Source: a virus
DNA length: 64,000 nucleotides
Direction: 5' to 3' (one strand)
Virus record (IMG/VR): IMGVR_UViG_3300049445_000358
Below, one piece after another: positions 16,809 to 46,239 of this stretch. Every line of letters begins with the position of its first letter. Position 1 is the stretch's first letter. The translations under genes and the position numbers were made by a program. The notes under the pieces were generated by a model. That model saw only the letters and a list, made by a program, of their open reading frames with translations. It had not been told where the DNA came from and ran no database searches.

Positions 16809-17338
16809 TGCCAGCCAAACCAGATCTGTGTGTCGACTTCGACGGTGTCATCCACTCCTACACCTCAGGATGGCATGGATCACACATCGTAGCTGACCCT
16901 CCTGTCCCAGGAGTCTTCCAATGGCTCTATAGGGCTCAACAGTACTGGAGGGTGAATATCTATTCCTCACGCTCAAAAGAAGCGGCAGGCATTCAAGCGA
17001 TGAAGCTCTACTGTAAGGAACATGCGACCAAAGAGCTACAAACACCATCTGCGATCAAGGACTTCCTGCAGAACCTACAATGGCCGACGCAGAAGCCTGC
17101 AGCCAACATGACGATCGATGATCGAGCATTCTGCTTCCAAGGCAACTGGGACGATCCGGCTCTCGACCCTCGAGTGCTTCTGCAGTTCAAACCGTGGAAC
17201 AAGCGCGGCCCGGAGACTCGTACCCTTCCGTTTCACATTCAACACTTGATCGACGCCATCAACATTGACCAGAAGGACCTGGCTATCCACTTGGAGGCCT
17301 CCATCCTCAAGGAATTGTACGGACCTGTGACAAGGTGA
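16805..17338 (+). CDS. HAD-superfamily phosphatase
   Basis: Motif I DFDGV, motif II YSSR, KP...IDDR. Confidence 0.8.
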   Translation: MMPAKPDLCVDFDGVIHSYTSGWHGSHIVADPPVPGVFQWLYRAQQYWRVNIYSSRSKEAAGIQAMKLYCKEHATKELQTPSAIKDFLQNLQWPTQKPAANMTIDDRAFCFQGNWDDPALDPRVLLQFKPWNKRGPETRTLPFHIQHLIDAINIDQKDLAIHLEASILKELYGPVTR

Positions 17339-19853: not shown

Positions 19854-20423
19854 ATGCAGTCCGATAATGAGAGAGCTTGGGAACGGAGTAAGCGAGAGGG
19901 CGTCAACCCGAAAGACCTGATCGGGGTCACCAAAGTCCCCTTCCAAGTCGTTCCTTGGCCGGCTGTCGCTTACATGTCGTTCTGCATGTATGATGGAGGA
20001 GTCAAGTACGCTCCCGTCAACTGGCGTGACATCGCCGTCAAGCTAAGCATCTACGCCGAAGCTGGGCTAGGCCACTTCGCTTCGATCCTCGACGGCAAGG
20101 ACTATGATCCCGTCACTGCATTACACCATGCGGGCTATGCTATGTCGTGCGGAGCGATCATCCTTGATGCCTTGATCACCGACAGCCTCATCGACGACCG
20201 CTTTGCAGTGCGTCGCCAACGTCCAGGGGCTCTGGCATCACGCGACATCGTCGGCTACCCAGAAGGCAGGCCAGGTGCCATCAAGGAGATGATCGCCAAG
20301 CCTCTCCGTCTCGATCCTATCGGTTCTATACCGGTACCTCCGCCTCAACCGTCAGCAGATCCCGAACCGGTACCTGCACCTGAGAGTCTGGTCCCAGACG
20401 GAGGTCGGGAGGAGCCGTTCTAA
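19854..20423 (+). CDS. DUF5664-type dATP/dGTP pyrophosphohydrolase domain protein
   Basis: NPKDLIGVTK...GGVKYAPVNWR...DPVTALHHAGYA...DDR. Confidence 0.75.
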   Translation: MQSDNERAWERSKREGVNPKDLIGVTKVPFQVVPWPAVAYMSFCMYDGGVKYAPVNWRDIAVKLSIYAEAGLGHFASILDGKDYDPVTALHHAGYAMSCGAIILDALITDSLIDDRFAVRRQRPGALASRDIVGYPEGRPGAIKEMIAKPLRLDPIGSIPVPPPQPSADPEPVPAPESLVPDGGREEPF

Positions 20424-25960: not shown

Positions 25961-26108
25961 GTTCCTTGATTCGGAGCTTGACAATCCCCAGAACACTACA
26001 GACCTAGAGTTCGAGCGGACGAAACATCTAAGGCAGTACGAGATATGCAGTCGAATTCTAACCAAGACAGTCGAGAAGATCAAGCAGCTCGTTTCATCAG
26101 GGGAATGA
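25869..26108 (+). CDS. Hypothetical coiled-coil protein (TTG start assumed)
   Basis: The helical C-terminal part of ORF 25677..26108 looks coding; its TGA overlaps the Fic ATG. Confidence 0.4.
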   Translation: MRRGRRKSSDSNDYTLEELKEIKDLVLGQVEFLDSELDNPQNTTDLEFERTKHLRQYEICSRILTKTVEKIKQLVSSGE

Positions 26109-26605
26109 TGCAGTCGGAGGCCCTTGAGGACTTCATCCGTGAAAGTAATATCATAGAGGGCATTATCAAGCCGAAGGACATCCAAGAGACGGCCGCTTAC
26201 ATGTCTCTCTTAGGGCTGAAGAGAATGACGTTGCACATTCTCAACAGGTTCCAAGAGATAATCGCTCCAGACAAGCCTCTCAGACGTCTAAAGGGCATGG
26301 ACGTCTATGTCGGCAACCATATTCCTCCGCCAGGAGGATCAAACATCGTCGAGATGTACGAAGAGATCATCCTGATGGCCAACCAGGATGAAGATCCTTG
26401 GAAGGTCCATCTCCTCTTCGAGGATCTACATCCGTACATGGACGGCAACGGTCGTACTGGTCGAGCCTTGTGGATGTGGCAGATGCACAAGCAGGGCCGC
26501 GATCCGTTCCAGCGGTCATTCCTCCACCAGTTCTACTACGACACCCTCTCACGCACCAGGGCAGGAATAGCCTATGCAAAGCCAGCTGACCCCGGCCAAG
26601 GTTAA
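26105..26605 (+). CDS. Fic/Doc family protein
   Basis: Motif HPYMDGNGRTGR; ESNIIEG. Confidence 0.9.
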   Translation: MMQSEALEDFIRESNIIEGIIKPKDIQETAAYMSLLGLKRMTLHILNRFQEIIAPDKPLRRLKGMDVYVGNHIPPPGGSNIVEMYEEIILMANQDEDPWKVHLLFEDLHPYMDGNGRTGRALWMWQMHKQGRDPFQRSFLHQFYYDTLSRTRAGIAYAKPADPGQG

Positions 26606-27239
26606 CACGGACGAAGGGTGCGGAGATTGCGCCCTATGTTGCAAGCTGCTGCACATCGACCCGGAGCCTGCTGTTGCCCAGATGACCCAGGGGCAGGTAG
26701 ACTTCCCCGAGAAGCCCTGGAACACCTGGTGCAAGCACTGCAAACCGGGACACGGAGGAGGCTGCCGGATCTACCCTGTGAGACCTCAGGCTTGCGTGAC
26801 CTTCCAATGCATCTACCTACAGTCCTTAACTCGGGATGACGTACCCAAACTGGAGTACAACCTTAAGCCGAAAGTTTCTCACGTAGTACTGATGGGTTCG
26901 GTACAGGACAATATGGTTCTGTTCGCCCACTGTGACCCGGCCTACCCGAGAGCCTGGCGTAACGAGCCAATGCGCTCGCACCTGATCAATGTCTCCAACC
27001 TAGGATGCACTGTTATCATCGTAGTAGGGCGAGACCACTACGTGATGACGAAAGGCCGACCGACGGTGAAGATGACGGAGGAGCAGGCCCTTGAACTATC
27101 TAAGAATAAGTTCATCAAGCAGGGGTCGGACGGACAGCTCCATATCGGGCTTCTGGATTCCACAGTTGCATCTACTGATAGTCGGCTTGTCCCGCGCCCT
27201 GTACCTCGGGCCGACTACGACTACGACAACAAGAGATAG
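26574..27239 (+). CDS. CxxCxxCC (YkgJ-like Zn/Fe-binding) protein
   Basis: CGDCALCC...WCKHC...CRIYPVRPQACVTFQC. Confidence 0.75.
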   Translation: MQSQLTPAKVNTDEGCGDCALCCKLLHIDPEPAVAQMTQGQVDFPEKPWNTWCKHCKPGHGGGCRIYPVRPQACVTFQCIYLQSLTRDDVPKLEYNLKPKVSHVVLMGSVQDNMVLFAHCDPAYPRAWRNEPMRSHLINVSNLGCTVIIVVGRDHYVMTKGRPTVKMTEEQALELSKNKFIKQGSDGQLHIGLLDSTVASTDSRLVPRPVPRADYDYDNKR

Positions 27240-32849: not shown

Positions 32850-33602
32850 ATGAAGACCTTGGCGTATGTCCTCCTCTCAGGGGGCATTGACTCGACCACC
32901 TGCGTCGCGGAGGCTGTTGCAGCCGTAGGGCGGCGCAATGTCCGATGTGTGTCGATCGACTACGGCCAGCGACACATTCGCGAGCTGGAGTCGGCACGAG
33001 CGGTGGCAGGGTACTATGCCCGGCCTCACACCATCCTACCAGTCTCGTTCCCGCGCTCTATGCTGACGGACCCGTCCATCGAGGTTCCGAACATCTCATA
33101 CGCGGAGATCCAGGGGGTGTCCCCTACCTACGTTCCGTTTCGGAACGGGCTATTCCTGGCGACGTTGGCATCACATATCGCAGGTATCCACTTCGACCCA
33201 ACGAAGATGACTCTCCCGATGGAGAGTACGATCCCAGGCGACAACGTACCCAACCCCGAATACAACGCCGACGTTACGTTGTACTTCGGCGCGCACGCGG
33301 AGGACGCGCAGAACTGGGCGTACCCAGACTGCACACCCGAGTTCGTCGGAGCGATGGCCAACGCGCTGTACGTCGGCACATACCACAAGCTCCGGTTGGT
33401 GACCCCCTTCGTACACTCGACGAAGTCCCAAATCATCCAGCGGGGTAAACAGCTCGGCGCACCGTATTACCTGACCTGGTCCTGCTACAAGGGCGGTGAG
33501 GTACACTGCGGTACCTGTGCAACCTGTCTCGCACGAAGGGACGCCTTTATCGAGGCAGGCGTCGAAGACCCGACCATCTACATGGCCGAAGCTGCCGAGT
33601 AA
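32850..33602 (+). CDS. queC: 7-cyano-7-deazaguanine synthase
   Basis: LSGGIDS, DYGQRH, YVPFRN, YPDC, TWSCY...HCGTCATC. Confidence 0.95.
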   Translation: MKTLAYVLLSGGIDSTTCVAEAVAAVGRRNVRCVSIDYGQRHIRELESARAVAGYYARPHTILPVSFPRSMLTDPSIEVPNISYAEIQGVSPTYVPFRNGLFLATLASHIAGIHFDPTKMTLPMESTIPGDNVPNPEYNADVTLYFGAHAEDAQNWAYPDCTPEFVGAMANALYVGTYHKLRLVTPFVHSTKSQIIQRGKQLGAPYYLTWSCYKGGEVHCGTCATCLARRDAFIEAGVEDPTIYMAEAAE

Positions 33603-33651
33603 CTACACTACACTACGTATCCAACACCCGAGGGGAGGTTCAGGGCCGTAT

Positions 33652-34236
33652 ATGACGTTCAAGATCGACCGTTGCATCGAGATCGACGCAGGACACCGTG
33701 TGCCGACCCACGGGTCGAAGTGCGCAAATCCTCACGGGCATCGGTATAAGATCTTCGCCGAGTGTCAGTCGGCCAGCCTCACCCGAGAGCATCAGGGTGG
33801 AGCATACATCCATCTTCCTGGAGGCGATAAGGACGAGCAGCGGGATATGGTCATGGACTTCGGCTTCCTGAAGGAAGTCATGATGCACCATATAGACCGG
33901 ATGTGTGATCATGGCATGATCCTCTGGTGCGACGACCCTTGGGCGGCTATGATGCTGGACCCTTACCAGAACAACCCTATCGGAGTCCTACAAAGTTTGA
34001 CCCACGTGAGGGATGAGACCCTACCATTCCTCTTCGACGTCGTCGAGAAAGGCCACGATCCTCTTGCTCCACGCAAGCTGTTGATTGTGCCGTTCATTCC
34101 GACGGCAGAGCGCCTCGCAGAATTCTGGTACAACCTCATGAAGGAGGATGTCCATGTTCGGTCGAATGGGGTCGCCTATCTCAATCGCGTTAGCGTCTGG
34201 GAAACGCCGAACTGCTGCGCGTCCTACCCAGCATAA
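33652..34236 (+). CDS. queD: 6-carboxy-5,6,7,8-tetrahydropterin synthase
   Basis: DAGHR...CANPHGHRY, PTAERLA, VWETP. Confidence 0.92.
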   Translation: MTFKIDRCIEIDAGHRVPTHGSKCANPHGHRYKIFAECQSASLTREHQGGAYIHLPGGDKDEQRDMVMDFGFLKEVMMHHIDRMCDHGMILWCDDPWAAMMLDPYQNNPIGVLQSLTHVRDETLPFLFDVVEKGHDPLAPRKLLIVPFIPTAERLAEFWYNLMKEDVHVRSNGVAYLNRVSVWETPNCCASYPA

Positions 34237-34256
34237 GGAATACGTGGAGCCGGTCA

Positions 34257-34592
34257 ATGGTTGCGAAGTTCTCTGTCGGGGAGAGGGTGATTGGCCTACA
34301 GCACTCCCGAAGTCTGGCCCTGTTCGACATCCAGGAGATCTACCTGAATGCTGAGGGGAGTGCCGTCTACAAAGCCGTAAGGTGCTCGAACAACTCTCCT
34401 GAGTTCGTCGAGGAGGTTAACCTCAGCAAGTGCAACGGCAAGTACGTTGAATACGGAGGAAGTGTCTGGGACATTGAGTCAGTCCACCGGCCTGTCTTAA
34501 CGGCTCCTCCGGGTGAAGTCTCTGACGACACGAAGCTCGCCCTTAGCGACCTGGTCGAGTACCTGAATCGCAAGCACATAAGCAGAGGGTAA
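34257..34592 (+). CDS. Hypothetical protein inside the que cluster
   Basis: GGAG RBS, 111 aa. Confidence 0.6.
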   Translation: MVAKFSVGERVIGLQHSRSLALFDIQEIYLNAEGSAVYKAVRCSNNSPEFVEEVNLSKCNGKYVEYGGSVWDIESVHRPVLTAPPGEVSDDTKLALSDLVEYLNRKHISRG

Positions 34593-34596
34593 CACT

Positions 34597-35352
34597 GTGG
34601 CTAACACCGCAAAGAACATCCCGGTCATGGAGATCTTTGGACCCACCATCCAGGGTGAGGGAGCTCTAACAGGTCAGGTCTCCTACTTCATCAGGACCGG
34701 TGGCTGTGCCTATCGGTGCACCTGGTGCGACCAGATGGAAGCGGTTCTGCCGAAGGAAATCAAGAAGAACGCCACCTACCTGTCTGAGTCGCAGATCGTC
34801 GAGAAGGTCATGACTCTGCTACCTCCAGACGGTGTGCCAAACGGGTCGGACGTCTGGATGACGCTGAGCGGAGGCGACCCGCTCATGTGGAACCTCGAGT
34901 ACGTTGTCGGCTCCCTCCAGATAGCAGGAATGAAGGTAGCTGTTGAGACTCAGGGGACTCTGAACCCTATGTGGCTCCAGTACGTAGACCTCATCACCTG
35001 CTCACCAAAGCCTCCGTCCTCTGGGATGAGCCACAAGATCAACCATAACACTATCGAAAGCTACCACCGCTTGTTCGGCAAAGACAGGGTTGTCCTGAAG
35101 GTCGTCGTCTTCGATGAGAAGGACCTCGACTTCGCCCAGGCAATCCACGAGAAGTGGCCTACGACACCTTTCTACCTGAGCGTAGGCACTCCGACAGAGC
35201 AAGAGTGCCCAGACGACGACAAGATGAAACAAGCAATCCTCAAGAGGTACAGATGGCTCGCGGACGAGTTTCTCAAAAGACCAGCACTGTGGGGAGCAAC
35301 AATGGGTCCGCAGATGCACACCTTTCTGTACGCCCGCGAGAAGGGAAGGTAG
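34597..35352 (+). CDS. queE: 7-carboxy-7-deazaguanine synthase (radical SAM)
   Basis: EIFGPTIQGEG, CAYRCTWCD, SGGDP, ETQG, PQMH. Confidence 0.95.
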   Translation: MANTAKNIPVMEIFGPTIQGEGALTGQVSYFIRTGGCAYRCTWCDQMEAVLPKEIKKNATYLSESQIVEKVMTLLPPDGVPNGSDVWMTLSGGDPLMWNLEYVVGSLQIAGMKVAVETQGTLNPMWLQYVDLITCSPKPPSSGMSHKINHNTIESYHRLFGKDRVVLKVVVFDEKDLDFAQAIHEKWPTTPFYLSVGTPTEQECPDDDKMKQAILKRYRWLADEFLKRPALWGATMGPQMHTFLYAREKGR

Positions 35353-35357
35353 CGGCC

Positions 35358-36029
35358 GTGAATGAAGCTACATCTCCCGGATACGAGTACCGTCGCCCTT
35401 CTCAGTCTCCCATCAGGGAGATGATCGAGAAGAAGCTCCCTCCCGAAGGACAACGGGATAGGGATGCAGCACACTCGATACGTGCCGCTCTCGAGCAGCT
35501 CGGGATGGACTGTGACCCAGGAAATCCGTCTATCGCCAATACGCCGGAACGATTCATCAAGTACCTCAAGGAATTCTTCCAGCCGTTCGATGCAATCGAG
35601 CTCCTCGGAGAAGGCTTCGATGCGGTACACGACAACACGTCGATCAGCAGCATCGTCGCCCAGGCGCATATTCCGTTCACGGCGGTATGTGAGCATCACC
35701 TCCTCCCGTTTCAGGGAGAGGCTTTCGTTGGTTACATACCTAACCAGCGCGTCATCGGATTGTCCAAGATGGCACGTCTTGTTCATGCTGTCGGACACGA
35801 GCGTCCGGGTCTCCAGGAAGCGATGGGCGAGAAGATCGCCGACCTCCTTTATCAGGGGATCGACGCCAAGGGAGTAATGGTCGTTCTCCAGGCTAAACAC
35901 GGCTGCATGTCATGTAGAGGGGTTCACACGCCTGAGGTCGTCACTGTCACCTCCTGCGTTCGAGGGCTCTTCCGCGACGTCGTAGCTGCTCGTGAAGAAT
36001 TCCTCTTCCTCACAGGTTTCCGTCGTTGA
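35358..36029 (+). CDS. folE: GTP cyclohydrolase I
   Basis: TPERF, CEHHLLPF, GLSKMARL, LQE, HGCMSCRGV. Confidence 0.95.
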   Translation: MNEATSPGYEYRRPSQSPIREMIEKKLPPEGQRDRDAAHSIRAALEQLGMDCDPGNPSIANTPERFIKYLKEFFQPFDAIELLGEGFDAVHDNTSISSIVAQAHIPFTAVCEHHLLPFQGEAFVGYIPNQRVIGLSKMARLVHAVGHERPGLQEAMGEKIADLLYQGIDAKGVMVVLQAKHGCMSCRGVHTPEVVTVTSCVRGLFRDVVAAREEFLFLTGFRR

Positions 36030-36262
36030 CTCTGTCTACCCCTCTGAAAGAGCGCCTGGCTTTCTGGTGGAAGTTCCCCAGTAAGGGGATCTTCCACTAC
36101 GATCCAGACAAGGGTGAGGGGTCCTTCGCTGAGTCCTATGACCCCTTCAAAGACGAGATGCGCATGAGATACTCTCAGTTCGGATACGTCACGGGGCACG
36201 GCAATATCACTCTCGCAGGTTACCGAATCTATGTCGAGCCAATCCCGAAGTACAAAGACTAA
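36026..36262 (+). CDS. Hypothetical protein
   Basis: Start overlaps the folE stop. Confidence 0.55.
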   Translation: MTLSTPLKERLAFWWKFPSKGIFHYDPDKGEGSFAESYDPFKDEMRMRYSQFGYVTGHGNITLAGYRIYVEPIPKYKD

Positions 36263-36549
36263 TGCCGACACCTAAGGTTAAGGCTGCAGATGTTCTCCCG
36301 TGGTGTGCTGTCTGCGACAAGCGAGTAGACAGCATAGAGGAGATCCGTCAGCCTCATGTCAGGAAGACTCTATACATCGTACGATGTCACGGCCAGGAAG
36401 AGCGTACCGTCCTGGGCGACGAGACGATCCTCGATGCCTATTCGATCGAGGTTGGTACGGCGTTTGCAACCAGAAGGTTAGGAGCCCACGATGTCGACAC
36501 CAAGGGACGAACAAGGGATCGAAGACGAGATCCAGGCCAAGGGACTTGA
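36262..36549 (+). CDS. Hypothetical protein with CxxC
   Basis: WCAVCD...CHG; TAATG coupling. Confidence 0.6.
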   Translation: MPTPKVKAADVLPWCAVCDKRVDSIEEIRQPHVRKTLYIVRCHGQEERTVLGDETILDAYSIEVGTAFATRRLGAHDVDTKGRTRDRRRDPGQGT

Positions 36550-36823
36550 CGCCCCGCGTCTGTCGCCGGAGAAGATCGATGCGACAATCGCCGAGACCCA
36601 ATACTACGTCTTCCCCAACACCGTAACGACCGTGTGCTGTCTGACGCTGCAGAACGGTTACACAGTGATCGGGAAATCGGCGCCGGCATCCGAGGACAAC
36701 TTCGACAAGGAGCTCGGCGAGAAGATTGCCTTTGCGAATGCCCGCGAACAGATCTGGGCGCTCGAAGGCTACCTGCTCAAGCAGGAGCTCCACGAGGAGG
36801 CTGAGGGCGAAGCGGAAGCATAG
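36491..36823 (+). CDS. Phage gp49/gp66-family protein
   Basis: TVCCLTLQNGYTVIGKSAPAS..NFD.ELG..IA..NA..QIW.LEGYLLK. Confidence 0.85.
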   Translation: MSTPRDEQGIEDEIQAKGLDAPRLSPEKIDATIAETQYYVFPNTVTTVCCLTLQNGYTVIGKSAPASEDNFDKELGEKIAFANAREQIWALEGYLLKQELHEEAEGEAEA

Positions 36824-36890
36824 CCAAATCCCGCGGAACCCTCCGAAACTACTGTGCTAGGGGACCCCGTTATAGCATGGTCGATCGCGC

Positions 36891-37220
36891 ATGAAAATGA
36901 GGCAATGGTCAGAGGATGGGTACCGCAAGTGCTCGTTCTGCGACAATCAGATCGGGCAGTGCATGGGCATGGTCATGGCGGGGGATTTTGTCCTGGTCAT
37001 GCGTGGACAAATCCACCCACAGCAGATGCGCGAGCGCTGTGGTTCATGCGCTGCCCGACATACCACGGCCAGAGAGGGGGATAGGGGCCCCTTCCCCTTC
37101 TTCTGGGCGTTCCTATACGACGAGTTCTTCAGGAAAGTAAGCTGGCACCTACAGTTACGGCTCAGGAGAGTCAAGCACCCAGTGATGTTTCCCACCGAGG
37201 ATAGCTCGGTGTCTTTTTGA
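36891..37220 (+). CDS. Hypothetical protein with two CxxC motifs
   Basis: CSFCD ... CGSC. Confidence 0.5.
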   Translation: MKMRQWSEDGYRKCSFCDNQIGQCMGMVMAGDFVLVMRGQIHPQQMRERCGSCAARHTTAREGDRGPFPFFWAFLYDEFFRKVSWHLQLRLRRVKHPVMFPTEDSSVSF

Positions 37221-37283
37221 CCGGGGACCGCGCACCTGGCGGGGCCTCTTACTAGGCGATGACCCAAACGGAGACCAAAGAAC

Positions 37284-37502
37284 ATGGCCCAGTGTGAATA
37301 CCACCCAGACAAGGAATGCAGGTTCCTACACTTGTGTCAGGGAGTGGGTTGCTCTCACGAAGGCTTCGAAGTGAGGAAGTATCCTACTCGCAGGTCTCCC
37401 TGGCAATCGGGCTACAAGCCTGAACCGCCTCCGATGCAAAGTTCCGACGGAGGTCGTGCCCTCGGCGGCAAAGAGACTCCGAGCAAACCCAGAAGGGAGT
37501 AA
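37284..37502 (+). CDS. Hypothetical protein
   Basis: GGAG RBS, Cys/His-rich N-terminus. Confidence 0.45.
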   Translation: MAQCEYHPDKECRFLHLCQGVGCSHEGFEVRKYPTRRSPWQSGYKPEPPPMQSSDGGRALGGKETPSKPRRE

Positions 37503-37506
37503 GAAC

Positions 37507-38478
37507 ATGGCATACCAGCTGCCAGTAGCCGAGATCGTGTTAGACTCAGCCCATCCTATGGGCGACGAGTACCGCACGACGACTGTCCGAGGCAACATCC
37601 ACAAGTTCGTCCTAGCCGAGCGCAACCGTCACAGGATGTTCTCGCTCTCCGACCGGTCGAGTCGAGCAATCCCGACCAAGCGTCTCATCGACGAGATCCT
37701 AGGTGGAACAGGTTTGGCGATGCCTGTTGAGTTCCGTCGCAACATTCCAGGCATGGCTGGCGGCGAACCCTTTACCGGTGAAGAGCTTCTACTAGCCCAG
37801 CAGAGATTTGAGGACGACGCTAGGGCTGCATGTGTAGGGGCCCGAACTGCAATGGAGGCGAACGAGGCGAAGGAGACAGTTAACCGCCGCCTCGATCCGT
37901 ACTCTTGGACCTATACGGTGATGACCGCCACTCGAGACTGTTGGCTGAACTTCGCTGGTCTCCGGCTCGACAAGTTTGCCCAGCCCGAGATCCGCGTGTT
38001 CGCCGAGTCCTTCTGGCGCGCCTGGAACGAATCGACCCCCAAGCTTCTCAAACCCGGCCAATGGCATACCCCGTTCGTCGACGGCGAAGACTGGATAAGC
38101 ATCGAAGAGATGGCCTCCAGACCTGGAGAGGGCTACATGCCCGAACACGATACTTTGAATAAGGCGATCAAGCTGTCGGTGGGCCGGTGTGCACATACCT
38201 CCTATGTCGATTTTGAGACTGGGAACAGGATGACAGTTGAGAAGGCAATCGGCCTGTATGACAAGCTGATCACCTTTCGCCCGCTCCATGCCTCGCCCTC
38301 TGAACACCAATGCACTCCGGACGAGCTGGCAAATCCGATCATCACCTACCGAGCAGAGCCTATGTGGATGCACCCCAAGCTCCATGGGAACCTGCCGGGA
38401 TGGATTCAGCACCGGAAGCAGCTGCCTGGTGAACGTGTTGCTCCACTACCCGAGGGCTACGTCTATCGTGCGCATTAG
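37507..38478 (+). CDS. thyX: Flavin-dependent thymidylate synthase
   Basis: RHRMFSLSDRSSR fits RHRx7S; AQPEI; HASPSEH. Confidence 0.85.
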   Translation: MAYQLPVAEIVLDSAHPMGDEYRTTTVRGNIHKFVLAERNRHRMFSLSDRSSRAIPTKRLIDEILGGTGLAMPVEFRRNIPGMAGGEPFTGEELLLAQQRFEDDARAACVGARTAMEANEAKETVNRRLDPYSWTYTVMTATRDCWLNFAGLRLDKFAQPEIRVFAESFWRAWNESTPKLLKPGQWHTPFVDGEDWISIEEMASRPGEGYMPEHDTLNKAIKLSVGRCAHTSYVDFETGNRMTVEKAIGLYDKLITFRPLHASPSEHQCTPDELANPIITYRAEPMWMHPKLHGNLPGWIQHRKQLPGERVAPLPEGYVYRAH

Positions 38479-38483
38479 ATTAG

Positions 38484-38852
38484 ATGCCTAGGAAGCGTAT
38501 CACCACAGTAGGTCAGGATTATACGATCCTGGCTAAGCAGATACCAGACAAGGCGATAGCGAAGGCCTACGGCCTGACTGAACGCCAGATCTGGTCGAGG
38601 CGCTATACTCTTACCTCTCGCAGCAGGGTCGAGCCGAAGAAACCGTCTCCCCTGAAAGGTCGTGAAGAAGAGATCAGGTACCTGCTAAACGTTGAACGAC
38701 TGTATCTATCACAGGCAGCAGACCGACTAGGGGTTTCTCTTGGGACCCTTTCCGGGTATGTTCGAAGGCATAGGCTCCGGCAACAGGCCGTTGTGAGGCG
38801 CTTTGACCATCCTAGGGTTATGGTTACTAGACAACAAGACCAACACAGCTGA
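38484..38852 (+). CDS. Double-HTH regulator-like protein
   Basis: IAKAYGLTERQI and LSQAADRLGVSLGTL. Confidence 0.6.
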   Translation: MPRKRITTVGQDYTILAKQIPDKAIAKAYGLTERQIWSRRYTLTSRSRVEPKKPSPLKGREEEIRYLLNVERLYLSQAADRLGVSLGTLSGYVRRHRLRQQAVVRRFDHPRVMVTRQQDQHS

Positions 38853-38859
38853 GGATAAC

Positions 38860-41800
38860 ATGAAGATCGTTCGCCGATTCACTACTGCAGGGACACCTGT
38901 CGAAGAACAGATTGTCTGGAAGCGGATGGCCTCCCACATCGAAGACATGAGAACTGGGAAGGTCATACACCATCAAGACGACGTTGAAGTCCCGGAGCAG
39001 TGGTCGCAGACGGCGACGAACATGCTATCCCAGAAGTACTTTCGGAAGCGCGGCGTCCCAACAAGGACTATCCGCTTCAACTCTCCTGAAGAATCGGATA
39101 TGCCCGGCTGGATACAGCGTTCAATCCCGGCTATGGATGCCGAGTACATCGGCGAGACCTCTGGGAAGCAGGCCTTTCACCGGTTGGCTGGCTGCTGGAC
39201 GTACTGGGCCTGGAAGATGGGACTCATCAAGGATGGGGTATCAGCCCGGAATTACTATGACGAGATGTACTGGATGCTTGCCATGCAGTACGCTGCACCC
39301 AATTCGCCTCAGTGGTTCAATACCGGACTGCATTGGGCCTATGGCATCGAGGGACCGGATTCCGGTCAGTGGACGGTACTCTGGGACGGGAACATCGCAG
39401 ATGGAGTTACATATCCTTACGTTGACCGAGTATATGATTCATACTCCAGGCCTCAGCCGCACGCATGTTTTATCCAGCCAGTCCAGGATGATCTTGTCAA
39501 TGAAGGCGGCATTATGGACCTATGGGTTCGGGAGGCGCGTCTTTTCAAGCACGGCTCTGGCACCGGTACAAACTTTTCTAGTCTCCGTGGTGAAGGGGAA
39601 GGACTCTCGGGTGGAGGTCGTTCCTCCGGTCTCATGTCCTTTCTACAGATCGGTGATCGAGCGGCTGGTTCAATTAAGTCTGGCGGTACCACTCGAAGAG
39701 CTGCCAAGATGGTCTGTATCGATGTGGACCATCCAGACATCGGAGAGTTCATCGAGTGGAAGTCCGGAGAAGAAAACAAGGCCTCAGACATCGCCGTGGG
39801 GTCGAAAGTCACAGCACGACATCTGAGAGGCATCCACGAGGCAGTTCTGAGATGGGGAACCAGTTCGGTTCTCTATAAGGAGCGTGTAAATGCTGCACGT
39901 GATGATGGCGTCCCTGACTCGATTATCAACCGGGTGCGCTACGCTGCAGAGCGAGACGAGCCGTTCAAATGGGAAGTCTACGAGGCTAACTCTTGGGAGG
40001 GAGTCCCGATCGAGACGGTCTCAGGGCAGAACGCAAACAACTCGATCAGGATCACCTCGAAGTTTCTACAAGCCGTCGACGAAGATAAGCCTTGGGACTT
40101 GATCGCCAGGACTACTGGCAAGCCGATGAAGACCGTATCGGCCAAGGGTCTCTGGGACAAGATCGTTCGAGCTGCCTGGACTACCGCTGACCCAGGTATG
40201 CAGTTCCATGACGTGATCAACGACTGGCACACCTGCAAAGCGGATGGAGACATCAATGCCTCTAATCCATGCTCCGAATACATGTTCCTCGACGATACTG
40301 CTTGCAATCTTGCTTCGCTCAACCTGGTTAAGTTCCGTGGGTCTAATGGTGGTGTGGATGTTAACGCATACATCCACGCCTTGAGGCTGTGGACAGTCAC
40401 TCTGGATATCTCAATCCAGATGGCTTCGTTCCCGTCCCGGAACATTGCACACAACACTATGCAGTATCGGACGCTGGGGTTAGGCTACGCCAATCTCGGC
40501 GGCCTCTTGATGCGTTCAGGCATCCCATACGACTCTGAGGTGGGGCGCAACTTCGCAGCAGCTTTGACCTCTCTAATGACAGCTGTAGCGTACAGCACCT
40601 CCGCAGAGATGGCTGGCGAGATCGGCCCGTTCCCAGCATGGGAGCGCAACAAACACTACATGGCCGTTGTGATGGGCATGCATGCTGCTGCCCTGGACGG
40701 CCTTCAGACGGACGAGTGGTCTGGGCAGTTGCTAGTTGCAGCTCAGCGCTACTGGAGTTTGGTCGTAAATGATGCAGGGACTGTTGGCTTCCGCAATGCA
40801 CAGGGGACGTTGCTAGCCCCAACAGGCACTATCGGACTCCTGATGGACGTCGACACAACAGGCTGCGAACCCGAGACCTCCCTAGTGCGCTACAAGAACT
40901 ACGCCGGAGGCGGCTCGGATAAGTTCGTGTGTCAAGCAGTCGAAGAAGGCCTCATTAAGCTCGGCTACAACGGCGACCATCTGAAGGCCGTTCTCAAGTT
41001 CGTCGAGGAGAACGGGCACCTAGCAGTTGCGACTGAGAATCACGTCGCAGGTATCTGGTCGGAGCACCTCCCAGTCTTCGACTGCGCTCTAGACCGTAAG
41101 GAGACCACCAGATATATTCGGCCGATGGCCCACATCGAGATGCTGGCGGCCATCCAGCCGTTCCTGTCTGGAGCGGCGAGCAAAACGTGCAATCTGCCTG
41201 AGACAGCAACCTACGAAGACGTCGACATGCTTTACCGGGCTGCTGAGCGGTTGAAGTGCAAGGCTGTCGCCCTATACCGAAACAACTGCAAGCTCACCCA
41301 ACCAGTCCAAACCGAGCAGCAGCCGGCCGTCGAGCGCCCAGACGACCAGCCCTTCATCCCTGAGACCGATCTAGTACGTCACACATCCATAGAGGAGCTC
41401 CGAGCAGAGAGGACGCACAGCAACGGCCATGACAAGACGAACGGATCGATGCAGAGGGGCGAGAGGAAGTACCCTCCCAACAGGCGATATGGACCGGCAC
41501 AGAAGGTTCGCATCAACGACCAAGTGATCCATATCCGAACCTCCGAGTACCCTGACGACCACTCGTTCGCTGAAGTGTTCGTCGATATGGGCAAGGACGG
41601 GTCGATGCTGCAGGCGGTCCTAGGTCAGTGGGCTAAGGCTGTCTCACTTGCAAGGCAGTACGGAGCGCCGACTGAGAAGCTCGTTGAGTCGTTCCTGCAT
41701 ACCCGATTCGAGCCTGCTGGGTTCGTTCAGGAGCACGACCACATTAAGTCATGCACCTCCGTCATCGATCTGGTTGCTCGCGAGATCGGCTTTACCTACC

Positions 41801-42048
41801 TCAAGCGTATGGACTTAGTCCAGGTACCCCCTGACACAGACCACGCGATGCACTTCAATCCGGTTGCATTCCAACCACAGCATCAGACAGAACATTCTTC
41901 CCTGATGGGGACTGCTGGAGTTGTAGCGTCGCCAGTTCGGATGGTTGCGTCCGGTAACGCTTGCAGTGTCTGTGGCAACGAGATGGAGTGGGACGGTACC
42001 TGCCTCAGATGTCGCCGTTGCGGCAACAATACCGGTTGCGGGAGTTAG
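38860..42048 (+). CDS. nrdJ: Class II (B12-dependent) ribonucleotide reductase with TSCPD and zinc-ribbon C-terminus
   Basis: PNSPQWFN, QPHACFI, NPCSEY, ACNLASLNL, LAPTGTIG, C-terminal CSVC/CRRC. Confidence 0.95.
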   Translation: MKIVRRFTTAGTPVEEQIVWKRMASHIEDMRTGKVIHHQDDVEVPEQWSQTATNMLSQKYFRKRGVPTRTIRFNSPEESDMPGWIQRSIPAMDAEYIGETSGKQAFHRLAGCWTYWAWKMGLIKDGVSARNYYDEMYWMLAMQYAAPNSPQWFNTGLHWAYGIEGPDSGQWTVLWDGNIADGVTYPYVDRVYDSYSRPQPHACFIQPVQDDLVNEGGIMDLWVREARLFKHGSGTGTNFSSLRGEGEGLSGGGRSSGLMSFLQIGDRAAGSIKSGGTTRRAAKMVCIDVDHPDIGEFIEWKSGEENKASDIAVGSKVTARHLRGIHEAVLRWGTSSVLYKERVNAARDDGVPDSIINRVRYAAERDEPFKWEVYEANSWEGVPIETVSGQNANNSIRITSKFLQAVDEDKPWDLIARTTGKPMKTVSAKGLWDKIVRAAWTTADPGMQFHDVINDWHTCKADGDINASNPCSEYMFLDDTACNLASLNLVKFRGSNGGVDVNAYIHALRLWTVTLDISIQMASFPSRNIAHNTMQYRTLGLGYANLGGLLMRSGIPYDSEVGRNFAAALTSLMTAVAYSTSAEMAGEIGPFPAWERNKHYMAVVMGMHAAALDGLQTDEWSGQLLVAAQRYWSLVVNDAGTVGFRNAQGTLLAPTGTIGLLMDVDTTGCEPETSLVRYKNYAGGGSDKFVCQAVEEGLIKLGYNGDHLKAVLKFVEENGHLAVATENHVAGIWSEHLPVFDCALDRKETTRYIRPMAHIEMLAAIQPFLSGAASKTCNLPETATYEDVDMLYRAAERLKCKAVALYRNNCKLTQPVQTEQQPAVERPDDQPFIPETDLVRHTSIEELRAERTHSNGHDKTNGSMQRGERKYPPNRRYGPAQKVRINDQVIHIRTSEYPDDHSFAEVFVDMGKDGSMLQAVLGQWAKAVSLARQYGAPTEKLVESFLHTRFEPAGFVQEHDHIKSCTSVIDLVAREIGFTYLKRMDLVQVPPDTDHAMHFNPVAFQPQHQTEHSSLMGTAGVVASPVRMVASGNACSVCGNEMEWDGTCLRCRRCGNNTGCGS

Positions 42049-42074
42049 GGTAGGCCCTCCCATTATTTACCCTC

Positions 42075-42104
42075 TTGCAATGACCAAGGCACATATGGTA
42101 TAAT
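42075..42104 (+). promoter_or_regulatory. Promoter P6 of the dpdA-polymerase operon
   Basis: TTGCAA-18-TATAAT with extended -10 TG; upstream CCATTATTTACCCTC resembles the box. Confidence 0.8.
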
Positions 42105-42110
42105 AAGATA

Positions 42111-42410
42111 ATGGCTGATCCAATAGACCTCTGGGCAGTAGACCTCGACAAACCTGTGGAGGTTCTAGCCCGATACTGGAACGAATTTAACTGCTGGAGC
42201 TGGCCTGAAGAGCTGCTCAGCCTCAAGCCTGAAGGGTATGATGATATGCCCCTCAGTGAGAGGCACATCATCATTAGGCCCGCAATGCATGCGATCAGCG
42301 ATAAGGTACCTGAGAAAGAATTGCTCCGGTACCACCATCTGCACAATCTATCGAGAACCGAGACCGAGTTTGAAGCTTGGTGGGCTAAGTCTGAGGCAGG
42401 AGACATCTAA
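42111..42410 (+). CDS. Hypothetical protein
   Basis: Starts 6 nt after the -10 element (possibly leaderless); TAATG-coupled to the next gene. Confidence 0.65.
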   Translation: MADPIDLWAVDLDKPVEVLARYWNEFNCWSWPEELLSLKPEGYDDMPLSERHIIIRPAMHAISDKVPEKELLRYHHLHNLSRTETEFEAWWAKSEAGDI

Positions 42411-43258
42411 TGGCTTTGTTTGCACCTATTGGTCCTGCTCGCCTCCTGAGGAAGATTCGTGAGCTACATGGCGACAGGATGTTAGGGAAGTACCACTTGG
42501 TGCTTGCCCATGATATCGTCGCCAACCCGGATGAGTGGAGAAACTGCCGCACACTCCCTCCAGACTCGACTGTCATCATCGACAATTCGATCATCGAGCT
42601 CGGAGCTCCCGTCGATGTGGATACGATGGTAGAAGCCTATGGGATTCTTGGCCCTGACTACCAGTGTATCATCGTACTGCCGGATAAGTTCGACGATCCG
42701 GTTGTTACCCTAGAGCAGTCGGCTGACTACCTCGAGAAGTTGAAGTCCAGGCCGGAGCTCGGCGGTGTCGAGTACATGTACGTCGTCCAGGGCGATAGGT
42801 TGTCGGACTTCTCAGAGTCGTTTCTCTGGTCCAGCCTGGATCACATCGTTGATCGGGGAGCTCGATGGATCTCAGTACCTCGGCGAGTATGTGACAAGTT
42901 CGGCACAAGGATGGTAGGGCTCTATCCTCTGTTGAACTACAGGCTCAGAAGGCCGATAATCGACATTCATCTGTTGGGGTTCAGCGAGAACGTCCTCGAC
43001 GATGCCTGGTGTACAGCCTGTCCAGGAGTTACGGGGATTGATTCGGCAGTACCTGTTCGACTCGGCCAAGCAGGTCGCTCGATCGACTTACTACACAAAG
43101 GAGATCAAGCAGGGCCAAGAGGGACCTTCTGGGAGGACCCCCATGGCCACCTGAACCTCATGGTCGGCGAGAACCTCCTAGCTGTCAGAGTCTGGTTCGA
43201 AGCTGCACATAAGAACCTTCCCAGATATATCCCCGAAATCAAGGAGGAGTGGCTGTAA
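42410..43258 (+). CDS. dpdA: TGT-fold DpdA-like 7-deazaguanine DNA transglycosylase
   Basis: TGT-ordered motifs IIDNS, VLPD, VVQG, IHLLG, GIDS; no C-terminal CxCxxC zinc site. Confidence 0.72.
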   Translation: MALFAPIGPARLLRKIRELHGDRMLGKYHLVLAHDIVANPDEWRNCRTLPPDSTVIIDNSIIELGAPVDVDTMVEAYGILGPDYQCIIVLPDKFDDPVVTLEQSADYLEKLKSRPELGGVEYMYVVQGDRLSDFSESFLWSSLDHIVDRGARWISVPRRVCDKFGTRMVGLYPLLNYRLRRPIIDIHLLGFSENVLDDAWCTACPGVTGIDSAVPVRLGQAGRSIDLLHKGDQAGPRGTFWEDPHGHLNLMVGENLLAVRVWFEAAHKNLPRYIPEIKEEWL

Positions 43259-46006
43259 ATGCCCAAACTCCTAGCAGGTCCAGCGTGGGACTTCGCTGAC
43301 ACGGATATGCCGAAGTGTCTTGGATGCCCTTACGGGGGAGCCAAGTGTGGTTCGCGCGGGAGGATGGATGCACCGATAGTCTTTGTGGGCGAGGCACCCG
43401 GCCAAGAAGAGATCAGACCAGGCCAACGGCTGCCTCTAATAGGTCCTTCAGGAGAGGTATTCTGGGGTACATTCCCTCCCTTACAGACGCTCAGGGATGA
43501 GGGCATGGACCCGAATGGGTTCCTCATCCTCAATGCAGCTCAGTGCAGACCTCCGAGGACCAAGAACCAGCAGAAGAATATCGCCAACGTCAAGAGGGCA
43601 ATGGTCACATGTCGTGACCGTCTGCTAGAGCAGGTAGCCAGGCATCCCCGTAAGCTCGTAGTAGCAATGGGGAACTTTGCCCTCTGGTCCTTGACAGGGA
43701 ATATGAACTATAAGATCACCCAGGTTCGAGGTCAACCTATTCCTAGTCCCTTGGCTGAACATGGGATCCTGCCGGTAGTTCATCCCGCAGGCATCATGCG
43801 TGGTACTGGCAACTATCGTCAGTACAAGATGGACATGAACTACGCCCTTGACATCCTCCGGGGACATCCTCTCAAAAGCCCCGTCAAGACATTCTACCTG
43901 GTATGCGATACACCCGACAGGGTCCGTCGAGCAATCAAGAAGTTAGTCAAGGCACCAGTTATCGACTGTGACATTGAGACGACGGGGTTCAACCCCAGAG
44001 TCGATGACATACTGGCTCTAGGGATGTCGAAGGACCCCCGGCTGGTGTACATCTTCCCAGGAGCGATTCGATCGATTGACCGGATGATCGAGTTGCAGGC
44101 CCACGAGACGTGGATGGACGGTCAGCCATCCATGATTCCATACCTGAGAGGCTTCTTCCGGAAGTACCGCGGGCATATGAAGTTCTCCGCCGCCGGCAAG
44201 CCGATAGGCAAGGGTAAGCTCTGCTGGCATAACGGCAAGTTCGACATCTCATTTATGAGGGCTCCCGGCTCGGGTCTGGAAGACGAGGACCTCTCTATTG
44301 GCCAAGAGGCAGAGGTTGCGGTCGACGAAGATACGATGTTGATGTCCTATGTGCTCGACGAGAACAGAGGCATCCACGATCTAGAGCAGGTTGCTTCGGA
44401 CCTACTGGGAGCACCAGACTACAAGTTCATTATCAAGCAGTGGGTTCCTAGGAAGAAAGATTCGTATTGTAGGATCCCCCGTACGATCCTGTACAACTAT
44501 TTGGCATTGGACGTCGGCTCGACAGGCGGCATTCGAGACATCATGCGTCGCCGAGTACGGGAGGATCCGGTACAAGAGAAACTGTACCAGCATCTCCTCC
44601 GATTCTCGGAAACGGCGTATTGGATCGAACGCCGTGGCATGCCCGGGAACAGGTTCGCTCTGGAGAGGCAGCAGAGACGCCTCCAGAAGGTCCTCGACGA
44701 GTCCATAGCAGTGGTTCAGGAGGAGGCTGAGAAGCTCGGTGTTGATAAGTACATCAATCCAGGCTCCCCACAACAGATGGCCTGGATCTTCTTCGACGTC
44801 CTGAAGTATGACATCCCCGAAGGGCATGAGCGTTCTACCCAGAAGGAGGTAGTAGCGAAGCTACCTCAGTCGCCGATTGTCAAAGCGTACAGGGCTTTCA
44901 AGGTAGCCCAGAAGGCTAAGGGGACGTATGCAGATGCCCTCCTCAGAGCGATCGATCCCGTTACTGGACGAATTCATCCGGGACTACTTATCCATGGAAC
45001 GCGCACTGGCAGACTTTCGCACAAGGTCGTCGCTAACATCCCTCGAGACAAACGCCTTAGGGGCATGTTCGCATTCGAGGTCCCTCAGCAGTCCCGAATT
45101 CTCGAACTACCCAAGCCTTACCTCATTACTAAAGGCTTCTCGGGTGAGCCGGCTGTCATCGGAGGCATGGCTCGAGGGGGCCGGCTATTCCTCAAAGCCG
45201 ACCTTGATCAGGCGGAGCTTCGAGTACTTGCTGCCATGTCAGGAGACCCCGAGCTCTGTGCCATCTACCTCTCCAACACACGCAAGCTCCACAGAGAAGT
45301 CGCATGCGAGATCTGGGGATCGCCAGGGACGACAGAAGGCAAGAAGAGCGGTGAGTTCAAGTGGGGCAACGAAGAGTACATGAGGGCAAAGGCTCTCAAC
45401 TTCGGGATCATCTACGGTCGAGAAGAGTTTTCCATCGCAATGGAGTTCGGCATCCCTGTCGGTGAGGCTAAAGGCTACATCGACATGTGGAAGAACAAGT
45501 TCCCGGTTGCGTGGAAGTTCATCGAGGATTGTCGAAAGAAGCCCCTCGAGATGAAGACCATGGTGACTCCTTTCGGAAGGAAGAAGAGGCACTGGATCGT
45601 CACGAGAGAGAACGTTCATGGCCTCCAGAACGAGGCTGCGAACTTCCCAGAGCAGTCGATCGCCAATGACATTGTCCTCGAAGCGTCGAATCAATTAGCT
45701 GTGCCTTTCCGCAAACTTGATGTACACACTGTCTTTTTGGTGCACGACGAAATCTTACTGGATGTTCCTGACGACATCGGTGTCGTAAGGGAAGCTCGCC
45801 ATATGGTTGCGGAAGCTTTAGAACAAGCGCCGAAGACCTGGGGCATTACCAGAGTGCCATTCAAGGCAGACACCTCAGTCGGTCGCCGTTGGGGTGTTTA
45901 TCGAGGCACCGACCGCAAGGGGGCTTGGAACGAGTATCTCCAGTCTAAGATTCACCTCGTCACCGACGCAGAATACACCGAGCTGGGCAGAGGAGCCGCC
46001 GACTAA
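43259..46006 (+). CDS. polA: Family A DNA polymerase with an N-terminal UDG family-4-like domain and 3'-5' exonuclease
   Basis: CLGC/GEAPG/CRPP/HPA; DIET, HNGKFD, YLALD; DLDQAELR, RAKALNFGIIYG, VHDE. Confidence 0.93.
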   Translation: MPKLLAGPAWDFADTDMPKCLGCPYGGAKCGSRGRMDAPIVFVGEAPGQEEIRPGQRLPLIGPSGEVFWGTFPPLQTLRDEGMDPNGFLILNAAQCRPPRTKNQQKNIANVKRAMVTCRDRLLEQVARHPRKLVVAMGNFALWSLTGNMNYKITQVRGQPIPSPLAEHGILPVVHPAGIMRGTGNYRQYKMDMNYALDILRGHPLKSPVKTFYLVCDTPDRVRRAIKKLVKAPVIDCDIETTGFNPRVDDILALGMSKDPRLVYIFPGAIRSIDRMIELQAHETWMDGQPSMIPYLRGFFRKYRGHMKFSAAGKPIGKGKLCWHNGKFDISFMRAPGSGLEDEDLSIGQEAEVAVDEDTMLMSYVLDENRGIHDLEQVASDLLGAPDYKFIIKQWVPRKKDSYCRIPRTILYNYLALDVGSTGGIRDIMRRRVREDPVQEKLYQHLLRFSETAYWIERRGMPGNRFALERQQRRLQKVLDESIAVVQEEAEKLGVDKYINPGSPQQMAWIFFDVLKYDIPEGHERSTQKEVVAKLPQSPIVKAYRAFKVAQKAKGTYADALLRAIDPVTGRIHPGLLIHGTRTGRLSHKVVANIPRDKRLRGMFAFEVPQQSRILELPKPYLITKGFSGEPAVIGGMARGGRLFLKADLDQAELRVLAAMSGDPELCAIYLSNTRKLHREVACEIWGSPGTTEGKKSGEFKWGNEEYMRAKALNFGIIYGREEFSIAMEFGIPVGEAKGYIDMWKNKFPVAWKFIEDCRKKPLEMKTMVTPFGRKKRHWIVTRENVHGLQNEAANFPEQSIANDIVLEASNQLAVPFRKLDVHTVFLVHDEILLDVPDDIGVVREARHMVAEALEQAPKTWGITRVPFKADTSVGRRWGVYRGTDRKGAWNEYLQSKIHLVTDAEYTELGRGAAD

Positions 46007-46239
46007 TGGAATCAGGAATAGAGTTCCGCCGTACCTGGAAGCGAGGAGCTAACGGCGAGTGGCAAGAGGTCGAGTTTGAACGGCTCCGGGTCGGAGACGT
46101 GTTCAAGCTGGAGGACACCTCCAAAGGCGTAACCTACCTTACGGGTAAGGTCGGTACTACGCCACAACCCTGTGAGCCCCCAGGAAACTGGACCTTCGAA
46201 TCGGACGGCCTCGAGTGGCACGATAAGGACCCCGACTAA
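46006..46239 (+). CDS. Hypothetical protein
   Basis: TAATG coupling. Confidence 0.65.
   Translation: MESGIEFRRTWKRGANGEWQEVEFERLRVGDVFKLEDTSKGVTYLTGKVGTTPQPCEPPGNWTFESDGLEWHDKDPD

Follow-up and report, generated by a model that had tools for sequence, protein, structure and literature searches.

The virus record IMGVR_UViG_3300049445_000358 of IMG/VR is an 80,218-bp genome rated 100% complete. The window analysed here is a stretch of 64,000 nucleotides (nt) of this genome (bases 2513–66512), and its positions 32850–46006 carry genes for 7-deazaguanine synthesis, a protein with the fold of tRNA-guanine transglycosylases (TGTs) and a DNA polymerase. In a public run search, the phage recurs in many soil and rhizosphere metagenomes, only assembled metagenome contigs being listed. 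The initial annotation, made from the DNA letters, had described the region as a 7-deazaguanine DNA-modification system in which a divergent DpdA is coupled to a glycosylase-fused polymerase. By profile and structure searches, queC, queD, queE, folE, a promoter, a small open reading frame (ORF), the TGT-fold gene and the polymerase gene were all found where it had placed them, and the description was upheld wherever it could be checked, i.e., for the complete pathway to 7-cyano-7-deazaguanine (preQ0), for the divergent TGT-fold enzyme and for the nucleotide-metabolism genes that it named. As argued below, the module would serve the 7-deazaguanine modification of the genome of a lytic, uncultured soil phage and is probably centred on an enzyme of the DpdA3 type.

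The preQ0 gene cluster spans 32850–36029 on the plus strand, within a long early/replication block. Starting from GTP, FolE, QueD, QueE and QueC would together yield preQ0 as a free base, the chemistry established for these families. QueC, the preQ0 synthase (32850–33602, +), has 250 amino acids (aa) and no fused glutamine amidotransferase (PF06508, E 1.2e-47; TIGR00364, E 1.4e-40). QueD, a 6-carboxytetrahydropterin synthase (33655–34236, +; PF01242, E 1.5e-24), lies in an ORF that opens at 33496 and overlaps queC, hence the start at 33655 (M54) is judged probable. It keeps the CxxxHGH motif, with H72, C76 and H80 invariant in the alignment, and a profile search of the whole genome found no other gene of the PTPS type. 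Compared with the QueD proteins of related phages, it contains two insertions of ~16 and ~45 residues that leave CxxxHGH intact; the relatives of its soil clade have CxxxHGY instead. An ORF of 111 aa (34257–34592, +) follows, for which neither a Pfam, PHROG or NCBIfam match nor a homologue at related loci was found. QueE, the radical S-adenosylmethionine 7-carboxy-7-deazaguanine synthase (34597–35352, +), matches TIGR03365 (E 6.3e-65) with 219 bits against a cut-off of 206. FolE, a GTP cyclohydrolase I (35421–36029, +), matches PF01227 (E 4.6e-47) over residues 107–285 of a long ORF that opens at 35154, and its true start is placed at about 35352 or 35421. Only QueE exceeds its NCBIfam equivalog cut-off; QueC, QueD and FolE exceed the Pfam cut-offs but fall below the equivalog ones. 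A gp49/66-family gene, ThyX, a helix-turn-helix protein and a class II ribonucleotide reductase (RNR) separate FolE from the promoter described next.

About 6 kb downstream of the que cluster and behind the RNR stop at 42048, a sigma-70-like promoter (TTGCAA-18-(TG)TATAAT, with a TG-extended −10; 42075–42104, +) precedes three packed genes. It is the sole site with at most one mismatch in the window, where 0.01 would be expected. The first gene is a 99-aa ORF (P0002; 42111–42410, +), which matches nothing in Pfam, PHROG or NCBIfam; the second encodes the TGT-fold protein of 282 aa (P0001; 42410–43258, +), and the third encodes the polymerase. The 99-aa and 282-aa ORFs overlap by 1 nt (TAATG), and the 282-aa ORF and the polymerase gene abut. 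The −10 element ends 7 nt ahead of the ATG at 42111; if the promoter is real, the mRNA would be leaderless or nearly so. P0002 was considered as a conserved partner of the transglycosylase-like gene and ruled out, as it does not resemble the small ORFs that precede that gene in the relatives. An ORF of ~77 aa moves within the module: it lies 3' of the polymerase gene in the window (46006–46239) and, with 48% identity, 5' of the transglycosylase-like gene at locus L012 (9765–10001). A megablast search of 42111–46006 against phages returned no match.

The 282-aa protein is predicted to be a TGT-fold transglycosylase of the DpdA3 type, consisting of a single (β/α)8 barrel. It has no match in Pfam, PHROGs, NCBIfam or the PDB (phmmer and profile searches), and its classification comes from AlphaFold2, Foldseek and hhalign. 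The model was calculated from an alignment of 63 metagenomic homologues (64 sequences with the window protein) and shows eight strand-helix units with a mean confidence (pLDDT) of 96.6. In a Foldseek search of the PDB, the top 50 matches all belong to the TGT superfamily and are nearly all tRNA-guanine transglycosylases (E ~2e-8). VIA, a fold search independent of Foldseek, ranks ArcTGT, TGT, Cap10, DpdA and QTRT2 first to fifth, with Z-scores of 16.5–14.1; other TIM barrels score at most 13.8, a modest margin, as expected among TIM barrels. In BFVD, which holds viral models, a 259-aa protein from Cellulophaga phage phiST comes third; DpdA3 was defined in this phage. The TGT fold proposed by the initial annotation is thus borne out by structure prediction and fold search, and by no sequence library. 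The zinc subdomain (CxCxxC...H) is not present in the protein, whose chain stops after the barrel. Because the N-terminal motif FAPxxP is conserved, 42410 is the correct start (282 aa), and the public 259-aa call begins too late.

Profile–profile alignment turns the "divergent DpdA" of the initial annotation into a more specific placement. In hhalign, full-length alignments join the family to the DpdA annotated in Flavobacterium phage immuto_2-6A (probability 98.8%, E 1.3e-16, 233 columns) and to the homologue F379_130 of Campylobacter phage F379 (97.7%, E 1.8e-12). The motifs DNSxxEL, PD, VxQG, HLLG and (I/L)D(S/T)xxP are common to the window family and the immuto DpdA3. BLAST searches from the immuto DpdA3 reach CP220 (E 3e-50), Weizmannia phage Youna2 (E 2e-9) and the Bacillus BSP7 group (E 1e-4), and Youna2 and BSP7 are the phages to which the window protein itself is linked by BLAST. 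DpdA3 likewise has no direct Pfam match and was reached by HHpred only (PMC10516641). Residues D58, N59, E63, R167, G190, D197, D198, D211, S212, P215 and R237 are invariant in the 64 sequences. In the model, D58/N59, G190 and D211/S212 are placed at or just past the C-terminal ends of barrel strands (D58 at strand 3 and D211 at strand 8), where the active sites of TIM barrels sit. Both D58 (DNSxIE) and D211 (GIDSAVP) align with the DNS and DTS of the immuto DpdA3, and motif order and position make these two residues candidates for the acid/base and the nucleophile of TGTs. As proxies for DNA binding, isoelectric point and net charge do not discriminate (median isoelectric point of the family 5.7 versus 6.0 for Escherichia coli TGT). 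A tblastn search of phages with E. coli TGT reached no DpdA.

The family is large, with 4,894 cluster representatives (50% identity) at E ≤1e-3 in a profile search and 606 at E ≤1e-30. A maximum-likelihood tree, rooted at the midpoint and containing no outgroup, resolves three groups, namely the DpdA3 proteins of immuto and the Campylobacter phages, a Bacillus-phage group, and a soil clade of 65 rows (support 99/93) that holds the window protein and that of Brevundimonas phage StAshley. The members from Chryseobacterium and Aeromonas phages are long branches within the group of characterised DpdA3. In cultured phages (Brevundimonas StAshley and MaInes, BSP7-like Bacillus phages and Weizmannia Youna2), the family gene is annotated as "hypothetical". 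The 7-deazaguanine synthesis genes queC, queD and queE (with folE) accompany the DpdA3-like gene in the window and in all nine relatives read, i.e., StAshley, Youna2, BSP7 and six metagenomic contigs (31–45% identity), and the order from the que genes through the DpdA3-like gene to the polymerase is kept in 9/9. Downstream in the relatives there is usually an RNR gene and, in many cases, also a deoxynucleoside monophosphate (dNMP) kinase, FolE and a phosphoribosyltransferase (PRTase). Behind the RNR gene of the metagenomic phage L007, a 258-aa gene (16029–16805) weakly matches glycosyltransferase family 2 (E 6e-4); none was seen in the window.

The polymerase is a 915-aa family A enzyme (PolA; 43259–46006, +) with N-terminal uracil-DNA glycosylase (UDG) and 3'-5' exonuclease domains (PF03167, E 6e-19; PF01612, E 1.8e-5; PF00476, E 5e-54). 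UDG-PolA fusions are known from SPO1, SP-10, Shanette, YerA41 and phiLo, and have been described for SPO1-like and SP-15-like phages (PMC13697223). The domain layout is the same, and the top cultured-phage matches of the window polymerase outside its clade include the Bacillus phages Shanette, JL and CP-51. However, the known UDG-PolA phages carry thymidine modifications (PMC13697223), whereas the window lineage is predicted to modify guanine. The UDG domain is probably an ordinary uracil-proofreading add-on, for which a functional tie to deazaguanine is not needed. Among the ORFs scanned there was no dUTPase, an observation consistent with a need for a polymerase-fused UDG. Two further proteins are long: a dCTP deaminase-like protein of 266 aa with a long N-terminal extension (14594–15394) and the ThyX of 340 aa (37456–38478). 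The coupling to the polymerase proposed in the initial annotation stands as far as the shared promoter, the overlapping or abutting genes and the conserved synteny are concerned; nothing beyond synteny and translational packing was found for it.

As for the base, the pathway of this phage should stop at preQ0. The initial annotation had seen no QueF, ArcS or QueC fused to an amidotransferase in the window. In the complete 80,218-bp genome, too, QueF (PF14489), ArcS (DUF5591, PF17884) and class-II glutamine amidotransferase (PF13537) are lacking, as are canonical TGT (PF01702) and a second QueD-like gene (DpdL), and QueC is unfused. No formyltransferase appeared among the Pfam scans of ~70 ORFs, although no search with its own model was made. 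Nothing in the genome was seen that would make preQ1, archaeosine (G+) or 7-deazaguanine. From the gene content, preQ0 is accordingly the predicted base, and the phage DNA would carry its deoxynucleoside, dPreQ0. In comparison, the pathways of the characterised DpdA3 phages are without QueC or extend to preQ1 derivatives (PMC10516641).

Several genes elsewhere in the window act, or may act, on nucleotide pools, and the PRTase, DUF5664 protein and RNR listed by the initial annotation are all present. The RNR (38803–42048, +) is a class II (B12-type) enzyme with a TSCPD domain (PF02867, E 6.5e-116; PF08471; PF12637) and is encoded downstream of the que cluster, ahead of the DpdA3-like gene. The PRTase (156 aa; 4834–5304, +) is Gpt-like, i.e., of the xanthine-guanine type (PF00156; NF006613, E 2.4e-23; E. 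coli Gpt 1a95, E 6e-14). It has diverged from Gpt (82.4 bits for NF006613 versus an equivalog cut-off of 138), and may use guanine or preQ0 as its base. Homologues stand beside FolE in StAshley and at loci L008 and L009 and two small ORFs from FolE in immuto, and a PF00156 gene, identified by its Pfam match only, lies directly behind FolE at locus L013. Unlike the other accessory genes, the PRTase accompanies the family broadly. The DUF5664/dGTP_diPhyd_N protein (19854–20423, +) is a predicted dNTP pyrophosphohydrolase (PF18909, E 2.9e-14 and 2.7e-16; 53.3 and 55.7 bits versus a cut-off of 27), and members of this family hydrolyse dATP, dGTP and dUTP (PMC12884076). At L013, a PF18909 gene lies between RNR and FolE-PRTase. 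The "NDT-like protein" of the initial annotation is the 146-aa ORF at 15741–16181 (+; start MKITLCGS), a candidate (deoxy)nucleotide N-glycosidase or transferase with the putative fold of nucleoside deoxyribosyltransferases (NDTs) and DNPH1. Its model (pLDDT 85) matches almost only DNPH1, MilB/BcmB and NDTs in Foldseek, yet weakly (E ~3e-4, TM-score 0.45–0.58), and it has no match to the Pfam NDT models. Residue E87 is invariant and lies in a GxSxxxEIxWA-type motif. A homologue with 39% identity lies between queC and queD in L007, and a weak PF15891 (NDT-like) gene lies directly behind the PRTase gene of L013. Neither DUF5664 nor the NDT-like gene occurs in StAshley, Youna2, BSP7, immuto or F379; both are sporadic. 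The ORF at 16805–17338 was rejected as the NDT-like gene, since it resembles haloacid dehalogenase (HAD) phosphatases (motif DFDGVIH). The gene of this 177-aa HAD-type protein lies between those of the NDT-like and DUF5664 proteins, and its product may belong to the same pool set as a (deoxy)nucleotidase. A dNMP kinase was not found in the genome by tblastn with the kinases of five relatives or by a Walker-A scan; these searches yielded RadA-like, primase/helicase-like (DUF3854) and AAA_24 proteins only.

Taken together, we estimate at about 0.85 the probability that the DpdA3-type enzyme and the preQ0 genes form a 7-deazaguanine DNA-modification module and that the DNA of this phage is modified. 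Two readings of the mechanism fit the data, exchange of the base on DNA and incorporation at the nucleotide level, and the accessory genes fit both equally. Our preferred version, to which we would give about even odds, is a post-replicative exchange on DNA with recycling of guanine. The 282-aa barrel protein, which would be co-transcribed with the replicative UDG-PolA, would use D58 and D211 to displace guanine from 2'-deoxyribose and install preQ0. The exchange would follow DNA synthesis and act on the phage DNA itself, the mode demonstrated for DpdA1, DpdA2 and bacterial DpdA. The released guanine would be converted to GMP by the Gpt-like PRTase and then to GTP, and would enter preQ0 synthesis again through FolE. 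Host deoxyguanylate may be fed into this loop by DUF5664, which would turn dGTP into dGMP, and by the DNPH1/NDT-like protein, which would release guanine from dGMP. The resulting dPreQ0 DNA would resist restriction enzymes that read guanine. We favour the DNA-level exchange because of the homology to polynucleotide-modifying enzymes, the gene slot shared with DpdA1, the patchy occurrence of both DUF5664 and the NDT-like gene, and the absence of a recognisable kinase from this genome. Several observations weigh against it. Action of DpdA3-type enzymes on DNA has never been shown, the trials in E. coli having been unsuccessful (PMC10516641). Replacement of G is 100% in CP220, phiST and immuto (PMC10516641), a figure typical of routes through the dNTP pool rather than of an exchange after replication. 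Nucleotide kinases and dNTP phosphohydrolases are neighbours of DpdA3 and DpdA3-like genes in several phage lineages that are unrelated to one another. In addition, the clade of the window protein stands apart from the characterised DpdA3 in the midpoint-rooted tree, and hhalign against the single sequence of E. coli TGT gave a probability of 1%, covering the VxQG stretch only.

The main competitor places the exchange on nucleotides. A DpdA3-type enzyme, or an NDT/DNPH1-like one comparable to DmtZ, would swap guanine for preQ0 on dGMP, and PolA would incorporate dPreQ0 triphosphate; DUF5664 would supply dGMP while depleting dGTP, a phage or host kinase would make the triphosphate, and replacement of G would be near-complete. 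In a variant, the preQ0 ribonucleotide would come from the Gpt-like PRTase and be reduced by the adjacent RNR. A route through modified dGTP was proposed earlier (PMC6884629). The two activities concerned are documented, as DUF5664 hydrolyses dGTP and an NDT-like enzyme moves deoxyribose-5-phosphate between bases (PMC12884076), and the free nucleoside dADG (2'-deoxy-7-amido-7-deazaguanosine) was found in infected cells, and the replacement of G cited above is complete (PMC10516641). The neighbourhoods of the DpdA3 genes point the same way. Campylobacter phage F379 has a fusion of HD and AAA_33 kinase domains upstream of DpdA3 and an AAA_28 kinase-like gene downstream, and immuto has a MazG-like phosphoribosyl-ATP pyrophosphohydrolase (PRA-PH) gene and a thymidylate kinase nearby. 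In Aeromonas phage Ahp1, a DNMK gene is followed by a DCD/dUTPase-like gene; Chryseobacterium phage MA9V-3 has an AAA_18/33 gene, BSP7 and Youna2 have a P-loop protein, DNMK adjoins FolE-PRTase in StAshley, L008 and L009, and L013 combines DUF5664 and an NDT-like gene in one block. According to its record annotation, the DpdA1 phage 9g is without such neighbours apart from a dUTPase. However, no TGT-superfamily enzyme is known to use free nucleotides, the genome of the window has no recognisable dNMP kinase, and the five phages listed above have neither DUF5664 nor the NDT-like gene. The kinase, PRTase and hydrolase set is equally explained by a loop recycling guanine to GTP, the small P-loop neighbours could be DpdB-like ATPase helpers, and the DpdA3-like gene occupies the slot of the DNA-acting DpdA1. 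We regard nucleotide-level incorporation as a real possibility with perhaps one chance in three. The same tentative standing applies to its extension to the family, by which DpdA3-type enzymes at large may be pool enzymes and not DNA transglycosylases, swapping the base on dGMP or acting together with the NDT/DNPH1-like transferase: DUF5664, MazG-like and HD hydrolases would remove dGTP, and kinases and polymerase would write a fully G-substituted genome. Two gene annotations in the neighbourhood of true DpdA3 can be revised: the "polyA polymerase" of F379 (L005, 4837–5859) is a fusion of HD phosphohydrolase and AAA_33 kinase, and the "hydrolase" of immuto_2-6A (L004, 6282–6806) is a MazG-like PRA-PH pyrophosphohydrolase.

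The remaining alternatives concern the final base, the tie to replication and the modification itself. Unassigned ORFs, e.g., the 111-aa ORF or a protein with a CxxCxxCC motif, could convert preQ0 to a derivative (7-amido- or 7-carboxy-7-deazaguanine, ADG or CDG, or a further-decorated base), which we consider unlikely. Several ORFs of conserved position and unassigned function lie in or beside the que cluster, the CxxCxxCC motif of PF03692 resembles the CxxxCxxCC motif of DpdM, and the characterised DpdA3 phages contain dADG, 2'-deoxy-7-deazaguanosine (dDG) or the 7-(formylamino)methyl derivative fdPreQ1 and not dPreQ0 (PMC10516641). Yet the enzymes that would be needed, i.e., QueF, DpdL-type QueD, formyltransferase (general Pfam scans only), ArcS and glutamine amidotransferase, were not found in the genome, the 111-aa ORF is not kept in the relatives, and tblastn linked the CxxCxxCC protein to no DpdM-bearing phage. 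This 221-aa protein with a PF03692 metal-binding domain (26574–27239) adjoins a Fic-domain protein (26045–26605); its assignment as DpdM is unsupported, the only tblastn match being one Rhizobium phage. A physical complex of the DpdA3-like protein and UDG-PolA, which would swap G as the DNA emerges, is improbable. The two genes abut behind one promoter, and their adjacency is kept from Bacillus phages to soil and alphaproteobacterial phages, but this is the old inherited synteny of a whole replication module, seen also with DpdA1 in 9g, where a clamp gene lies between. Moreover, the true DpdA3 of immuto and the Campylobacter phages does not adjoin the polymerase. A complex prediction for the DpdA3-like protein and PolA residues 200–915 gave a score of 0.00, uninformative either way. 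Still less credible is the reading that the DNA is unmodified and that the genes serve queuosine/preQ in tRNA, the supply of pterins or a Cap10-like protein conjugation. It accords with the nearest solved folds, since TGT, ArcTGT and Cap10 reach Z-scores slightly above that of bacterial DpdA. Against this, the specific homology is to the phage DpdA3 family, the DpdA3-like gene lies between DNA-replication genes in every relative, the protein lacks the zinc and C-terminal RNA-binding parts of the tRNA enzymes, and no genes of the CBASS defence system were found nearby. In addition, every phage shown to have deazaguanine DNA encodes DpdA, and the family has been proposed as a signature of this modification (PMC10516641).

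This kind of system and the DpdA3 subfamily were already published in 2023; the window protein belongs to a large sister clade, so far unannotated, in which the enzyme is combined with the full preQ0 route. Like the published DpdA3 systems (PMC10516641), the window encodes a minimal TGT barrel of ~260–280 aa that has no zinc subdomain and is missed by the Pfam TGT model, its gene lies among FolE, QueD and QueE genes and near the polymerase, and the Gpt-like PRTase is common to it and immuto. In contrast, the window protein is only ~22% identical and belongs to its own clade (99/93), the clade has the full preQ0 route with QueC and no QueF, DpdL or DpdN, while insertion of preQ0 has been shown for no characterised DpdA3 phage, and the gene of the clade is always directly upstream of a UDG-fused PolA. 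The DpdA1 phage 9g, whose DNA carries dG+, shares the series QueE/QueC/QueD/FolE, transglycosylase and polymerase and has a similar replication module, which contains DUF669, a Cas4/PD-(D/E)XK exonuclease and a Sak4/AAA_24 protein, and its DpdA1 is an experimentally proven DNA transglycosylase (PMC6884629). Escherichia phage CAjan (DpdA1, Queuovirinae) has the same combination, FolE, QueD, QueE and QueC plus DpdA, which yields dPreQ0 (PMC6884629). However, DpdA1 is detectable as a TGT, is proven on DNA and modifies at most ~30% of G (PMC6884629), whereas sequence comparison detects no similarity of the window enzyme to canonical TGT; 9g also lacks RNR, PRTase, dNMP kinase, DUF5664 and NDT-like genes. 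The PF18909 protein and the NDT/DNPH1-fold protein of the window recall the pool enzymes of Z-genome phages (DUF5664/MazZ-type and DmtZ), and in PurZ0 phages these two activities jointly make a non-canonical dNMP from the free base (PMC12884076). Unlike those systems, the window has no PurZ or DatZ, and the target would be G and not A. Its DUF5664 and NDT-like genes are neither adjacent nor conserved across the DpdA3-like clade, and their activities are predicted by analogy.

The combination of a DpdA3-type enzyme with a complete preQ0 pathway, as found in this clade, lacks chemical precedent, and the cultured members provide practical material for the question of whether the exchange takes place on DNA or on nucleotides. 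7-Deazaguanine in DNA is a known anti-restriction strategy. The family comprises ~4,900 clusters, yet neither Pfam nor PHROG offers a model for it, so that 7-deazaguanine may go unnoticed by current annotation in the DNA of a large fraction of the phages of soil and water, with relevance to the evasion of restriction and CRISPR, to defence glycosylases that target deazaguanine and to sequencing bias.

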